Below are positions 1,858-9,871 of a stretch of 24,095 bases of DNA, piece by piece. A program made the position numbers and the translations under genes. This stretch comes from a virus (Duplodnaviria; Caudoviricetes), in the IMG/VR virus record IMGVR_UViG_3300020325_000076, positions 1-24,095 of that record; one strand, given 5' to 3'. Within the stretch, counting starts at the first letter, position 1. Every line of letters begins with the position of its first letter. The notes beneath the pieces are model-generated. The model saw only the letters and a program-made list of their open reading frames with translations, did not search any database and was not told where the DNA came from.

Positions 1858-2241
1858 ATGACTGAGAAAAAATATACTGAAAAGCAAGCTGCTTTTTTAG
1901 AGGCTCTGATGGGTGAAGCCCGTGGTAATATCCGTAAGGCTATGGACTTAGCAGGATACAGTAAGGGAACCAATCAGGGTGAAGTAACGGGGCCGTTGCG
2001 TGAAGAGATTATTGAAAGAGCATCGATGATGTTAGCCATGAATGCGCCAAAGGCTGCACACGGTTTGATCGATGTCCTGAACGATCCAACGGCATTGGGA
2101 GCTAGGAATGCAATCAACGCAGCCCGTGAGGTATTAGACCGCACAGGCTTAATTAAGAAAGAAAAGATTGAGGTCACCAATAACGGTGGCGGTATGTTCA
2201 TTCTTCCCCCAAAAGCCGATGACTTGGAAAAACAAAACTAG
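1858..2241 (+). CDS. terS: Probable terminase small subunit
   Basis: N-terminal TEKQxxFL...A...AGYS helix-turn-helix pattern typical of TerS; directly upstream of TerL. Confidence 0.7.
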   Translation: MTEKKYTEKQAAFLEALMGEARGNIRKAMDLAGYSKGTNQGEVTGPLREEIIERASMMLAMNAPKAAHGLIDVLNDPTALGARNAINAAREVLDRTGLIKKEKIEVTNNGGGMFILPPKADDLEKQN

Positions 2242-4093
2242 AAAAAACGGAACCCAGAGAATACCCTACGGCTACAAGGCCAGTGATGAAGATCCTCTAC
2301 AGTTAATCCCTGATGAAGATTATACCCCACTGATCGAACAAGCCTTAGATCATCTAGATGAAGGGTATAGTGGACGTAAGGTTACGGAGTGGCTCAACGA
2401 TAAACTTGAGCGTACAATCTCCCACCAAGGTCTACGAAATATCTGGGCAGAGCATAGGCCCAAAAGCAAACGCCTGAAAGCTCTGAAGAAAGAGAATAAT
2501 AAGTCTAAGCCTAAGACGAAAGATGCAAAGACAGAAGCTCGACTAAGACGCAAGATAGCCGACAGCAAGCGTATCAAAACCATGATGGAGAATAAGCTTG
2601 CGAAGCACACAGGTGCAGATGTCGAAGCTGAAGAAGAGTTTCAAAGCATTTCCGAAACACTAGACTTCGGAGTTATCACCCAAGAACAACAAGAACGTGA
2701 AGTTGTTTTTCAACCAAATCCAGGCCCTCAGACAGACTTTCTAGCAGCTAGTGAACGTGAGGTTTTATACGGGGGCAGTGCAGGATCGGGGAAATCATAT
2801 GCTCTACTCGCTGACCCAATGCGCTATTTTAATAATAGTAACTTTAGCGGTCTTATACTTAGACGTACAAATGACGAACTACGGGAACTAATCTGGAAGT
2901 CTCAAGAGCTTTACCCAAAGATTTATCCTGAAGCAAAGTGGCAAGAAAAGAAAAGTCAGTGGGTCTTTCCTAGCGGTGGTAAATTATGGATGACCTACCT
3001 TGAACGGGATGAGGATGTACTTCGATACCAAGGTTTGTCTTTCAGCTACATAGCCTTTGACGAACTTACCCAGTACGCAACGCCCTTTGCTTGGAACTAT
3101 ATGCGCTCTCGTTTGCGTTCTACAGATCCAACCCTGCCACTATTCCAACGGGCTACGACAAACCCAGGTGGTAGAGGACATGGATGGGTCAAGAAGATGT
3201 TCGTAGATCCTGCCCCAGGGAATATAAAGTTTGCAGCAACGGACATCGATACAGGGAATACACTCACATTTCCCGAAGGACATGAAAAAGAAGGACAGCC
3301 GTTGTTCTACCGCAGGTTCATACCTGCAACTTTGAAAGATAACCCCTACCTGATGAAGGACGGGCAGTACGAAGCCAACCTTTTAGCACTTCCAGAAATG
3401 CAAAGGCGGCAATTACTAGAGGGAGATTGGGCTGTAGCGGATGGCGCAGCGTTCCCAGAGTTTAAACAATCAGTCCATGTCTGCGAACCGTTTGATATTC
3501 CCCCCGATTGGCGCAGATTTAGGAGTTGTGATTATGGGTACTCTTCGTATTCTGCGGTTCACTGGTTCGCTATTGATCCAAGCTACGAGACTTTATACGT
3601 CTATCGTGAACTTTATCTCTCGAAACACACTGGTAAAGACCTTGCTCAAGCGGTTCTCGAAGCGGAACAAGGGGAAAGCATTCAATACGGCATACTGGAC
3701 AGTTCGTGTTGGCATAATCGTGGGCAGATTGGCCCGTCTATTGCGGAAGAAATGATTAGCATAGGATGCAGATGGCGTCCAAGTGACCGTTCTGCAGGTG
3801 CAAGAGTAGCAGGAAAGAACAGATTTCACGAAGTTTTAAAGGTAGACCCTGTAACAGAAACCGCAGGTATTATTTTCTTCAACACCTGCCGACAGATTAT
3901 AGCAGATTTACCCGTAATTCCATCAGATCCAAAGGGTTCAGACGATATAGACCCAAGACACGCCTCAGACCACACATACGATAGCGTTAGATATGGAATT
4001 ATGAGCCGCCCGAAAGCCTTTTCACCCTTCGATATGGGTCAAGGCGTTCCAATACAGCGGTACACCCCCTCAGATACAAGATTTGGATACTAA
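2219..4093 (+). CDS. terL: Terminase large subunit with N-terminal extension
   Basis: Walker A GGSAGSGKS, Walker B YIAFDE, ATTNPGG coupling motif, nuclease motifs SCDYGY and DHTYDSVRY; first in-frame ATG at 2219. Confidence 0.95.
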   Translation: MTWKNKTRKNGTQRIPYGYKASDEDPLQLIPDEDYTPLIEQALDHLDEGYSGRKVTEWLNDKLERTISHQGLRNIWAEHRPKSKRLKALKKENNKSKPKTKDAKTEARLRRKIADSKRIKTMMENKLAKHTGADVEAEEEFQSISETLDFGVITQEQQEREVVFQPNPGPQTDFLAASEREVLYGGSAGSGKSYALLADPMRYFNNSNFSGLILRRTNDELRELIWKSQELYPKIYPEAKWQEKKSQWVFPSGGKLWMTYLERDEDVLRYQGLSFSYIAFDELTQYATPFAWNYMRSRLRSTDPTLPLFQRATTNPGGRGHGWVKKMFVDPAPGNIKFAATDIDTGNTLTFPEGHEKEGQPLFYRRFIPATLKDNPYLMKDGQYEANLLALPEMQRRQLLEGDWAVADGAAFPEFKQSVHVCEPFDIPPDWRRFRSCDYGYSSYSAVHWFAIDPSYETLYVYRELYLSKHTGKDLAQAVLEAEQGESIQYGILDSSCWHNRGQIGPSIAEEMISIGCRWRPSDRSAGARVAGKNRFHEVLKVDPVTETAGIIFFNTCRQIIADLPVIPSDPKGSDDIDPRHASDHTYDSVRYGIMSRPKAFSPFDMGQGVPIQRYTPSDTRFGY

Positions 4094-6232: not shown

Positions 6233-6447
6233 TGGATAAAGAAACATATCGCAGCTTACTGCCACTCGTTAACGACAAAGACACGATGGATAAGCTGAAT
6301 GAATACGCAGAGAGCCGTATTAGTTATTTCCATCACCTTTTAGAATTACAAAAAGACACAAGTCGTATTTTGGAAATACAAGGTGCAATCGCTGAGTTGC
6401 GTAGAATTAAGACCCTAAGAAGTGAAGTAATCAAAGGTTCAGAATAG
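6232..6447 (+). CDS. Small head-module hypothetical protein
   Basis: 71 aa, coupled to the portal stop; IQGAIAELRRI helix typical of small post-portal genes. Confidence 0.75.
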   Translation: MDKETYRSLLPLVNDKDTMDKLNEYAESRISYFHHLLELQKDTSRILEIQGAIAELRRIKTLRSEVIKGSE

Positions 6448-7652
6448 TGGATAGTAGCCCCCGTCCAAAGACACGGCCTATCACAGAACTTCCTTACTCC
6501 GACATCGAAAAAATAGAAAAGATCGTATGGGCTGAAGCCCGTGGAGAAAGCTTGGAAGGTCGTGATGCGGTTCGAGGTGTCATCTTAAACAGATTAGCCT
6601 CTGATAGGTTTCCCGACACAGTAGAAGAGGTTCTTAGTTCAAGTGAGTTTGAGCCTATTGAAACCTATGGCTCTCTGTCCGACATTCCTGCACCAAAAGA
6701 AGATTTAGAGAGCCAAGTACAAGAGTTTGTAGATTACATTCAACTAGGTGAAGATGCTGTCGAGGGAAGAACATTCTTTCAAAACACTTCGACAACTGAA
6801 GGCAGAGGCACAGACTTCACTGGCCCAGATGCAATTACCATAGGCAATCACACATTTACCCGTGGGTATGAAGGACAAGAGCCTGTTCTAGATACTCGTT
6901 TTTCTCACAACATACAGATCACCTACCCCGAAGTCGCAGAAGCAAATTTTTTTTCATCTTCTGAAATGGCTCTGGGGGGATTGATGGTAGGTCGCAAAGG
7001 TATTGATACAAAAGAAGGTTATGAAATGGCTGATAAAAAGTTTCAACTAGATGAAGACAAAGCAGACTTGGATAATGATGGAGAACTTTCATCCTACGAG
7101 AAAGCCCGTGGGGAAGCTGTCCAGAAAGCTATGGCTGATGATCCAGAGGCTGATGAAAAACCAAAGATGTATCATGGTGGTATGCCATGCGACTGCGGCG
7201 GTGACTGCGATGGAGACTGTATGGATGGCATGATGGGGCCAGTAGATCCTGTCTCAGGCAATCCTATCCCAGTTGGGTCTAATGCTAATGAAGTTAGGGA
7301 TGACATCGAAGTGATGCTGTCTCAGGGAGAATACGTTTTACCTGCAGATGTAGTGAAGTGGCACGGCCTCAAGCACATTATGAGTATGCAGGAAGAAGCG
7401 AAAATGGGTCTGATGGCTATGGATGCAATGGGTTTAATTGCTGAAGTAGATATGTCGGAACCAGAAGAGAGCGATTCCGAAGAAGAAACAATGGAAACGC
7501 CAGAGGGCAACGAGGTGGAAATGGCTTCAGTGGAAGTTTCTGAAGAGGAACCAGAAGTCAATGAAACAGAAGAGTATCAGGAAAGTGATTACTCAACCAA
7601 GACTTCTATGTACGGCATGGTGAAGAAACCAAAGGTTGCTTTCATCGTGTAA
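6447..7652 (+). CDS. Multidomain protein: SleB-like (Hydrolase_2) cell-wall hydrolase fused to an acidic head-module protein
   Basis: AEARGE, VILNR, FPDTV and IGNHTF match SleB/CwlJ motifs; C-half has an EF-hand-like DLDNDGELSSYE, a Cys cluster and DDIEVMLSQGEYVLPADVV. Confidence 0.8.
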   Translation: MDSSPRPKTRPITELPYSDIEKIEKIVWAEARGESLEGRDAVRGVILNRLASDRFPDTVEEVLSSSEFEPIETYGSLSDIPAPKEDLESQVQEFVDYIQLGEDAVEGRTFFQNTSTTEGRGTDFTGPDAITIGNHTFTRGYEGQEPVLDTRFSHNIQITYPEVAEANFFSSSEMALGGLMVGRKGIDTKEGYEMADKKFQLDEDKADLDNDGELSSYEKARGEAVQKAMADDPEADEKPKMYHGGMPCDCGGDCDGDCMDGMMGPVDPVSGNPIPVGSNANEVRDDIEVMLSQGEYVLPADVVKWHGLKHIMSMQEEAKMGLMAMDAMGLIAEVDMSEPEESDSEEETMETPEGNEVEMASVEVSEEEPEVNETEEYQESDYSTKTSMYGMVKKPKVAFIV

Positions 7653-7659
7653 ATTTTAA

Positions 7660-7685
7660 TGGGCTACCTTCACTAGAAGCCCCCA
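7660..7685 (+). promoter_or_regulatory. Predicted RNA hairpin abutting the scaffold Shine-Dalgarno
   Basis: TGGG-ctac-CTTC-acta-GAAG-cc-CCCA; GAGG SD follows at 7686-7689, ATG at 7696. Confidence 0.6.
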
Positions 7686-7695
7686 GAGGAAAAAC

Positions 7696-8469
7696 ATGAG
7701 TAAATATAAGAGAAAAGAACAGGCTGAAGAAAATCTATCATATTCAGAAGAAGTAGCAAAACAAGCACAAGTTGAGGCAGAACCTCAAGATCCAGAAGAG
7801 GCATCGTTTAAAAAACGATACGGGGATCTTCGAAGGCATATGCAGCAACTGATGCAACAGAAGGATCAGGAAATTGCAAAAGTTAAAGAACAGCTTGATA
7901 CCGCTGCAAAAGGTCAAATCAGGTTTCCAAAAACTGATGAAGAAATTGAAAATTGGTCTTCTAAGTATCCTGACGTTGCTAAAATCGTTGATACAATTGC
8001 CCGTAAAAGGGCTAACGAAGCTCTTGAAGAGGGGGAAAGACGATTAGGCCATTTAAAAACTCTCGAAACAAAGATTAGTAAAAAAGAAGCTGAACAAGAA
8101 TTACACAGGCTTCATCCCGATTTTCCTGAAATACGGCAAGATCCAAAGTTTCATGAGTGGGTTCAAATGCAGCCTATGTATATACAGGATGCTCTCTACA
8201 AAAATAACACAGATGCCGTGGCAGCGGCCCGTGCTATCGACTTGTATAAAGCCGATACAGGCAAGCGAAAAACCACGTCAAAGAAATCAGCGGCACAGGC
8301 CGTTGGACGTTCCACTTCAGTTGCACCAAAAGGCGAAGCAAAAGCGAAGTTCTCAGAAAGTCAGGTAGCTAAGATGTCTGACAGAGAGTATGATGCTAAT
8401 GAAGCCGCAATCCTAGAGTCAATGAAGACAGGTGAGTTCATCTATGATGTCTCAGGTGGAGCAAGATAA
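7696..8469 (+). CDS. Probable capsid scaffolding protein
   Basis: Charged helical 257-aa protein (FKKRYGDLRRH, HPDF...FHEWV) immediately before the major capsid gene. Confidence 0.75.
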   Translation: MSKYKRKEQAEENLSYSEEVAKQAQVEAEPQDPEEASFKKRYGDLRRHMQQLMQQKDQEIAKVKEQLDTAAKGQIRFPKTDEEIENWSSKYPDVAKIVDTIARKRANEALEEGERRLGHLKTLETKISKKEAEQELHRLHPDFPEIRQDPKFHEWVQMQPMYIQDALYKNNTDAVAAARAIDLYKADTGKRKTTSKKSAAQAVGRSTSVAPKGEAKAKFSESQVAKMSDREYDANEAAILESMKTGEFIYDVSGGAR

Positions 8470-8497
8470 GTGGCATAGCCACTAACTTAATTAGCTA

Positions 8498-8526
8498 TTT
8501 ACTAAGTGGCGCAGTTGTGCTATAAT
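8498..8526 (+). promoter_or_regulatory. Sigma70-type promoter for the capsid transcript
   Basis: TTTACT (8498-8503), 17-nt spacer, TATAAT (8521-8526) with extended -10 TG (TGcTATAAT). Confidence 0.75.
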
Positions 8527-8532
8527 TATTAG

Positions 8533-8741
8533 TAATGAAGCTTTTCGGAATAGGGCCTCAGTAGACTACCCCTAACCCGTTCATAACCAGAAGACTTAAA
8601 CAAACAGTCCACCAGTGTAGCGAGGCCCATGTGTACCGCAAATACATATGCACCCTTGCAAAACGCACTGCCACTTAATGTTACCTTCTGATCTAGTCTG
8701 TCAGCATTAGCTGACCTGCCATTTCAAAAGGAGTATTAACA
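8533..8741 (+). ncRNA. About 210-nt structured 5' leader (cis-regulatory RNA candidate) of the major capsid gene
   Basis: Long non-coding stretch in an otherwise gene-dense region; three hand-folded stem-loops (8535-8584, 8588-8690, 8700-8715); SD AAGGAG 8728-8733. Confidence 0.6.
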
Positions 8742-9830
8742 ATGGCATTTCCAAGCGCATCAGGTTACGGCAATTTACCTAACGGTAATTTTAGCCCAGT
8801 AATCTATTCCAAGAAAGTCCAAAAGGCTTTCAGAAGCACCTCTGTTGTAGAGGATGTAACTAACACCGATTACGCAGGTGAAATCGCAAATATGGGCGAT
8901 AGCGTAAAAATCATCAAAGAACCAGAAATCACTATCAACTCATATGCTCGTGGAACAACACTTGCGACACAAGATTTGACTGATGCAGATTTCACAATGG
9001 TTGTAACTGAAGCGAATTATTTTCAGTTTGCAGTCGATGATGTAGAGAGCGCTCATAGTCACATAAATTTTATGGATCTAGCTACAGACCGTGCAGGGTT
9101 CAAACTTCGTGACGCATTTGACCGTGAAGTACTAGGCTATATGTCTGGTTGGGATTGGAACGGTACTGCGTGGTCAAGACGTACCGCATTGGACACAGGT
9201 GGTTCAAAAGCCGATTCAAATGCAGGAAATGATGAATTACTTGCAAATAATAAGCTTGATATAAGCGATTTTGGTGGCTCAGAACTAGCAGGTTCTGCAG
9301 ATGCAAGCGGTGATTCAGGTTCTGCAGGTGAGGTCACGTCTATTCCTCTAGCTGCAGGTGGTGGCACAGGTGCTATCACTTCACCATTAGCTGTTTTAGG
9401 CCGCATGGCTCGACTAATGGATGCAGCAAACGTGGATACCGAAGGTCGTTGGTGTGTAGTCGATCCAGTGTTCAAAGAACTACTAATGGACGAAGACGCA
9501 AAACTAATGAACGCTGACTTTGGTGGCGAAGGCGAAATCAGAAACGGACGTTTACCAGGAACTATTCGTGGTATGCGAGTATACGTTTCAAACAACCTTC
9601 CATACCTAAATGGTGGTGCAGGTGCAGCCTCTTCAACAGGCTCTGAGCATTCATTCGGTGTATTAGTAGCAGGTCATGACTCAGCGGTAGCCGTGGCTGA
9701 CCAAATTGCGAAAACTGAGAGCTTCCGTTCTCCAGACACATTCGCAGACATCGTGCGTGGTATGCAGCTATATGGTCGCAAAATCTTGCGTCCTGAAGCT
9801 CTTATGACAGCGAACTACAACTTAGCGTAA
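8742..9830 (+). CDS. Major capsid protein
   Basis: 362 aa; NFSPVIYSKKV, TNTDYAGEI...GDSVKI, C-terminal FADIVRGMQLYGRKILRPE typical of podovirus HK97-fold coat proteins; strong SD, own promoter and downstream terminator. Confidence 0.93.
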   Translation: MAFPSASGYGNLPNGNFSPVIYSKKVQKAFRSTSVVEDVTNTDYAGEIANMGDSVKIIKEPEITINSYARGTTLATQDLTDADFTMVVTEANYFQFAVDDVESAHSHINFMDLATDRAGFKLRDAFDREVLGYMSGWDWNGTAWSRRTALDTGGSKADSNAGNDELLANNKLDISDFGGSELAGSADASGDSGSAGEVTSIPLAAGGGTGAITSPLAVLGRMARLMDAANVDTEGRWCVVDPVFKELLMDEDAKLMNADFGGEGEIRNGRLPGTIRGMRVYVSNNLPYLNGGAGAASSTGSEHSFGVLVAGHDSAVAVADQIAKTESFRSPDTFADIVRGMQLYGRKILRPEALMTANYNLA

Positions 9831-9838
9831 TAGCTTTC

Positions 9839-9871
9839 GGGGGCAGGGAGACTTGCCCCCTTCCTTCTTTT
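9839..9871 (+). terminator. Rho-independent terminator after the capsid gene (probably leaky)
   Basis: GGGGGCAGG-GAGA-CTTGCCCCC stem with GNRA loop, followed by interrupted U-tract TTCCTTCTTTT. Confidence 0.85.

Follow-up and report, generated by a model that had tools for sequence, protein, structure and literature searches.

The stretch of DNA analysed here (the window, 24,095 nucleotides (nt) of a Caudoviricetes virus) is the late module of an HMO-2011-type phage, a group described as dominant in the sea and widely distributed there (PMC9038755). Its genes follow the order terminase, portal, cell-wall hydrolase, a helical protein of 257 residues, major capsid protein and tail genes. The capsid protein is 82.6% identical to the coat protein of Roseobacter phage CRP-738 and 57.5% identical to the capsid protein of HMO-2011. 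We take the 257-residue product to be the probable scaffold protein on the basis of synteny, of an all-helical model (mean pLDDT 75, pTM 0.33) and of weak fold matches in BFVD to proteins named scaffold (best named E-value, 1.2e-3). Phage scaffolds are helical coiled-coil proteins, found in procapsids and missing from virions, whose genes lie just upstream of the major capsid gene; the predicted helices and the gene position agree with this here. Searches of the PDB by sequence and by fold, and of Pfam, gave no match for the protein. The features discussed below are these:

7660-7685, + strand: copy 1 of the loop, in the scaffold-leader hairpin, G-CUAC-C/G-CC-C, closing pairs with P 0.74-0.96 in context
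7696-8469, + strand: predicted scaffold protein, 257 residues, phrog_13678 (unknown function), between the portal region and the capsid gene
7813-7839, + strand: residues K40-H48 (KRYGDLRRH) of that protein, at the start of predicted helix 33-74, with codon 46 at 7831-7833
8498-8526, + strand: sigma70-like promoter TTTACT-17-TATAAT with a TG extension, a consensus match only
8551-8574, + strand: copy 2, in a hairpin, A-CUAC-C/G-CC-U, short strand (CC) first
8588-8593, + strand: 5′ strand, CAGAAG, of the predicted long-range helix P0
8606-8675, + strand: copy 3, outer loop of the long hairpin, U-CCAC-C/G-CC-A, long strand first
8620-8659, + strand: copy 4, inner loop of the long hairpin, G-CAC-C/G-CC-C, mirror-oriented to copy 3
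8685-8690, + strand: 3′ strand, CUUCUG, of P0, with the capsid Shine-Dalgarno (SD) region as its alternative predicted partner
8700-8715, + strand: small hairpin before the capsid ribosome-binding site
8728-8733, + strand: capsid Shine-Dalgarno sequence AAGGAG
8742-9830, + strand: major capsid protein (phrog_267)

Elsewhere in the window, three small Lys/Arg-rich, Cys-containing reading frames precede the terminase gene at 425-1380 (phrog_7595, phrog_727 and one unmatched, with a weak DUF5872 similarity). The large terminase (2168-4093) carries an N-terminal extension with a weak match to an integrase-family profile (phrog_95, residues 30-83, E 3e-4), and in the product of the gene at 6447-7652 a cell-wall hydrolase (PF07486) is joined to an acidic tail that includes a short Cys-rich stretch; the C-terminal residues of this product seem to be conserved among relatives as far as the scaffold leader. 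A strong terminator-like hairpin lies directly 3′ of the capsid gene (9839-9860). Among the relatives, the capsid genes of loci L054-L066 and L074 measure about 1290 nt instead of the usual 1050 or so, with an insertion of about 80 residues, and the capsid tree shows the capsid coding region exchanged and the scaffold-side module kept in L006, L112-L127, L134 and L136. An HNH endonuclease gene sits between the scaffold and capsid genes of L088 (1515-2084), inside the capsid leader region, and tRNA-like sequences are visible by eye between the same two genes in L775 and L759.

The four C-rich internal loops that the initial annotation had picked out in the scaffold and capsid leaders are all present as it described them, and they do recur within stems of differing sequence and in both polarities, the long strand coming first in copies 1 and 3 and the short strand first in copies 2 and 4. 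Copy 1 ends at 7685 and adjoins the Shine-Dalgarno sequence GAGG (7686-7689) of the scaffold gene, whose start codon is at 7696; it thus abuts the ribosome-binding site, as an operator would. Copies 2 to 4 lie 69-172 nt upstream of the capsid start codon. In a descriptor scan, 2000 shuffles of the 43-nt scaffold spacer yielded copy 1 once, and 2000 shuffles of the 272-nt capsid spacer never yielded two copies. The descriptor required three inner pairs and missed copy 2, and genome-wide it is noisy, giving five matches for the window where 30 shuffles average 1.7.

Fold energies alone are modest; they support the long hairpin well and the two short hairpins poorly. The segment 8600-8680 has a z-score of -2.73 on the + strand and +0.69 on the - strand; hairpins 1 and 2, folded alone, are not significant (z -0.42 and -0.93), hairpin 2 does better on the - strand (z -1.59), and the lower stem of copy 3 (3 bp) is missing from the unconstrained minimum-energy fold. 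It is the comparative data that are decisive. In an alignment of 24 distinct capsid leaders, hand-picked from 80 loci, the short strands of the three loops read CC in every leader and the loop strands are almost invariant, while 96.6% of 476 cells pair, compared with 27-45% when the partner strands are slid as a control. Both-sided changes occur in 9 of the 20 flanking pairs, so that the stems covary and the loops stay fixed. One stem pair alternates between U-A, U-G and C-G (10, 8 and 3 leaders, respectively), a series that can pair only on the + strand; this assigns the structure to the coding strand, as RNA. The stems are therefore likely to fold as RNA.

The motif is confined to a few leaders. 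When the 230 nt upstream of each gene were scanned, it was called before 2 of 25 genes of the window and 2 of 57 genes of CRP-738, the scaffold and capsid genes in both cases, and this restriction supports the proposal of a multi-site RNA element with one scaffold and three capsid copies. For HMO-2011, 4 of 64 genes were called, namely the scaffold gene and three others in dense coding regions, and the capsid leader was missed. Among 18 GenBank records, the motif is visible in the scaffold leaders of phages of Roseobacter, SAR116, SAR11, Rhizobium, Sinorhizobium, Vibrio and Aeromonas, and is not visible in those of Slicky01 and RHph_TM3_14A; the clade that includes Slicky01 (L095, L290, L318, L319 and L344) keeps the KRY helix, with Gln, and has no canonical hairpin before the scaffold gene. 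In 232 of 286 leaders, 9-32 nt (mostly 13-20 nt) separate the end of the SD-proximal copy from the scaffold start. In three SAR11 phages, CHOED and Aeromonas 1233 the capsid gene has no leader, and copies stand before the scaffold gene only, which indicates that the scaffold leader is the core site; control of the scaffold gene would accordingly be the core function, and the capsid-leader copies appear to be lineage-specific. A comparison with Rfam 15 found no family at the gathering threshold and, at E<=10, chance matches only, none of them on the loops, so that the motif corresponds to no known family there.

The initial annotation had likened these loops to the C-loop, a motif that occurs where proteins bind rRNA and a bacterial mRNA (PMC9516175). 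C-loops (Motif Atlas IL_73276.5) have a trans Watson-Crick/Hoogsteen pair between positions 2 and 6, a pair between positions 4 and 7 and zero to two bulged bases on the short strand (PMC4551918). The long strand mostly begins with C, and in three dimensions the motif forms two crossing base triples. Our loops are likewise asymmetric internal loops closed by two Watson-Crick pairs in a hairpin, with a long strand of the form C...C and a purine at position 6, and the short strand has 2 nt in all called copies, within the C-loop range. They differ from that class in that most copies have an extra long-strand pyrimidine and that position 5-6 is C-G, not U-A. Copy 4 has a long-strand core of three bases (CAC, in 39 of 47 capsid leaders of phages with Arg or Lys at scaffold position 46, see below), as is canonical, whereas copies 1-3 have four and would need one bulged pyrimidine. 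The likeness thus holds for the sequence pattern and for the pairs that it allows; since copies 1-3 carry one base beyond the canonical core, we call them C-loop-like, not members. In 268 strong copies, called with a descriptor that fixed position 6 as a purine and the short strand at 2 nt, the 2.6 combinations are C.G (195), A.G (52), C.A (16) and A.A (5), all of them allowed trans Watson-Crick/Hoogsteen pairs (PMC2673412), so that 268/268 are compatible as judged from sequence only. C.A, C.G and A.G belong to one isosteric group, I4.2 (PMC2673412). A C-to-A switch would therefore keep the fold and change only the surface, and a change of surface without a change of fold is what a change of specificity would need.

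Such a switch is found in nature. The lead came from CRP-738, CHOED and Aeromonas 1233, in which the long strand begins with A instead of C and, in the scaffold protein, Gln replaces the Arg or Lys directly after a conserved KRYxD[LI], at position 46. Loci were fetched by the protein pattern alone, with relatives added by homology or RNA pattern, and the SD-proximal loop was called by a descriptor neutral to the first long-strand base (chance call rate, 2.1%). In the 232 of 286 distinct scaffold leaders that were called, this base is C in 68/68 phages with Arg (R) and in 79/79 with Lys (K), and other than C in 85/85 with Gln (Q; A in 83, G in one and U in one), most Q rows having been sampled by their residue and belonging to one clade. 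Lineages fetched later by the protein pattern alone kept the rule and, among all 268 strong copies, the base is C in 211/211 for R/K and A in 57/57 for Q. The 54 uncalled leaders, of which 32 are Q, mostly agree when their letters are read directly, the exceptions being 2 of the 26 readable Q rows, which have C, and 4 of the 19 readable R/K rows, which have another base.

Among the 466 alignment columns of 108 representative scaffolds, position 46 is the only error-free predictor of the loop base; the next best columns, 43 and 45, are its neighbours on the same helix, and K40, R41, Y42 and D44 are about 100% conserved in these 108 rows. On the 52 rows shared with the capsid alignment, the best capsid column made 9 leave-one-out errors and scaffold position 46 none, in a scan that covered the scaffold and capsid proteins and with a leader that is physically linked to the scaffold gene. 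In the capsid leader, 1 kb away, where 87 of 221 regions were called and 39 of the 40 Q rows come from one clade, copy 2 has A in 22/22 called Q phages and C in 42/42 called R/K phages, and copy 4 has A in 32/40 against C in 44/47; copy 3 mostly stays C in Q phages (29/40), and its short strand becomes AC in 33/40. The 134 regions without an outer and inner call include genomes without a capsid leader and truncated loci. In the second Q lineage, L361, L410 and L596 have an A-type inner copy as well, by eye. We infer that the base at the head of the long loop strand is read by residue 46, Arg or Lys reading C and Gln reading A. The reading of adenine by Gln is a textbook contact. The suggestion that a single phage protein reads all the sites is supported by this covariation, which points to the scaffold-like protein over the capsid protein.

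How often the two partners changed together bears on the strength of this link. In trees made without the motif helix, the Q phages fall into three separate lineages or more, among them the CRP-738 clade, a group of L361, L596 and L661 beside CRP-207, and a CHOED-like group. Three concordant independent pairs lie on starred branches and four to five on all branches, with no discordant pair; the sign test on the three starred pairs gives p 0.25, a number of pairs that cannot reach significance. A single clade for the two Q groups nearest the window was rejected (p-AU 7e-56). When the four changes were placed by branch length, p was 9e-8 uncorrected and 1.4e-4 after a 257x6 correction, and a conservative three-event version of the calculation gave p 0.03. 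The leaders and flanks of the two nearest Q groups resemble those of their own R-type sisters. Apart from the C-to-A change and the apical loop, L661 has nearly the same leader as R-type CRP-13, and its scaffold flanks are of the long-scaffold type; recombination of one leader-plus-helix module thus fails to account for the second lineage.

CRP-738-type (Q) scaffolds with A-type scaffold leaders adjoin capsids of three clades. The RNA follows the scaffold, not the capsid, through swaps of the capsid gene. A count on the capsid tree (6 concordant pairs, p 0.03) was set aside as independent evidence because such swaps replicate one scaffold-leader unit.

Our preferred reading, to which we give a probability of about 0.62, is that the loops are one conserved C-loop-like site and that the scaffold protein binds it through its KRYxD[LI][R/K/Q] helix and represses its own translation. 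Scaffold present in excess of the coat supply would bind the loops with its basic helix. On copy 1, where the RNA helix ends at the Shine-Dalgarno sequence, bound scaffold would block ribosome loading and turn its own synthesis off, and the block would be lifted as scaffold is drawn into procapsids, in the manner reported for gp8 of P22. The capsid-leader copies would serve as further binding sites for the same protein.

The loops might be read instead by another phage protein, be it capsid, small terminase, portal or one of the small basic proteins, the scaffold residue being linked to the true reader or part of a three-way complex. We regard this as unlikely. It draws on the scope of the column scans, which took in scaffold and capsid, on the small number of independent events (3-5) and on the Lys/Arg-rich reading frames at 425-1380; on the other hand, no column of the capsid matches and the capsid is exchanged while the RNA stays as it was, and in each lineage the change falls on one and the same position of a basic helix that is invariant elsewhere, and goes the same way. 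It is also unlikely, and slightly more so, that the scaffold protein binds the loops mainly for assembly or titration, being localised to nascent coat or held by an RNA sponge, without the loops acting as translational operators. The distance of three of the four window copies from their start codon (69-172 nt) would suit such a role, as would the frequency of paired mirror-image loops (at least two strong copies in 63 of 169 R/K leaders), but the SD-proximal copy is placed before the scaffold start as operators usually are.

A host factor (ribosomal protein, synthetase or nuclease) that reads C-loop-like sites and tunes translation or mRNA stability is improbable. The C-loops of rRNA and of the bacterial mRNA mentioned above offer a precedent for it, and phages whose hosts differ widely share an identical C-type loop; nevertheless, phages of Roseobacter carry both C- and A-type loops (CRP-235 and CRP-738), which track the phage residue. 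RNase III needs about two helical turns, and the hairpins are short for it; an RNase III site was set aside on stem length. That the sites act as DNA, as hairpins or operators for transcription or packaging, is highly improbable, for although hairpin 2 folds as well on the - strand and has a promoter-like site just upstream, the U-A/U-G/C-G alternation works on the + strand only, stem length and sequence vary freely, and all copies lie on the coding strand, one of them abutting a Shine-Dalgarno sequence.

Returning to binding by the scaffold protein, its effect on the capsid gene is the less certain part. If the promoter at 8498-8526 is used, 8533-8741 would be the capsid 5′ leader; similar -10 boxes are visible in the capsid leaders of relatives. 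RNA-library contigs (from 4 of 22 runs) were given no weight as transcript evidence, as they show neither strand nor ends; two of them, 8585-9022 and 8563-8864, from two studies, join the leader to the capsid gene, and one begins at 8508, upstream of the predicted transcript start. Folding prediction gives the leader two near-equal states, with CUUCUG paired to the SD region in one and to CAGAAG, as helix P0, in the other. When copy 3 is held closed, the predicted SD opening at 37 °C rises from 0.10 to 0.78, and that at 20 °C from 0.02 to 0.69, and no such gain is predicted when copy 2 or copy 4 is held closed. Scaffold binding would, in this scheme, close copy 3, favour P0 and free the capsid Shine-Dalgarno sequence. 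A Watson-Crick helix of at least 5 pairs exists at the P0 position in 35/41 R-type leaders and in 10/17 of Q type, Q phages having the variant CAGAUAA/UUAUCUG; predicted SD opening increases by more than 0.1 in 24/41 R-type and 3/17 Q-type leaders, and decreases in 4/41 R-type leaders. Activation of capsid translation by loop closure is thus possible but uneven across leaders, and copy 3, which drives the predicted switch, is the copy that least follows scaffold residue 46. That free scaffold would both lower its own synthesis and raise that of the coat is the weakest step of our proposal, and we consider it doubtful.

The closest functional parallel is in P22, whose scaffolding protein gene is said, by Casjens and Adams and by Wyckoff and Casjens in 1985, to be autoregulated post-transcriptionally. 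We know of no defined RNA motif, site or binding surface for that autoregulation. The two systems share a proposed self-limitation of scaffold after transcription, a podovirus head module and a P22-coat-like capsid, the HMO-2011 coat being annotated PF11651. They differ in that the scaffold here matches no solved scaffold, that of P22 included, in sequence or fold, and in the repeated RNA loop, with its candidate reading residue and its copies in the capsid leader too.

GP20 is a scaffold-type protein. The Rfam families GP20-a (RF02991) and GP20-b (RF03003) and the GP20-upstream candidates of Fremin et al. 2023 (PMC10690425) are candidate cis-regulatory RNAs of phages and resemble our loops in lying directly before one head-module gene; our loops match neither these nor any other Rfam family, and the protein family differs. 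Fremin et al. 2023 also list DNAVirus_5306, a 101-nt candidate RNA of marine Caudovirales with 18 sequences, in 3 of which the next gene is named 'Phage-scaffold'; on its table entry it may or may not overlap with our loops, and the scaffold of the window has no Pfam match. In the T4 gp32 operator, as outlined there (PMC10690425), a phage protein also represses its own translation through a structured leader, but by means of a pseudoknot and a single-strand-binding replication protein where we propose an internal loop and a structural protein. Our literature search, outside which lie two large supplements of PMC10690425 and those of PMC5737381, which may bear on novelty, returned no description of this loop motif.

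In conclusion, the motif is real, widespread and uncatalogued; it looks like a C-loop and, on our reading, works like the autoregulation of the P22 scaffold. What is new here is that, in the sequences compared, the first base of the long strand tracks residue 46 of the scaffold protein within a near-invariant KRYxD[LI]x helix. More tentatively, and with the odds against it, this would be a widespread family of podovirus scaffolds with a hitherto unrecognised RNA-binding helix, a code of one residue to one base (Arg/Lys-C, Gln-A) and two-way control of head stoichiometry, in which the scaffold represses its own mRNA and turns on the capsid leader. An RNA site and its binding surface are in this way predicted down to one base and one residue, for which the natural swap variants provide built-in controls. 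If true, the finding would bring with it a new RNA-binding helix, a so far uncatalogued RNA family and a repressor-operator pair that is both compact and orthogonal.
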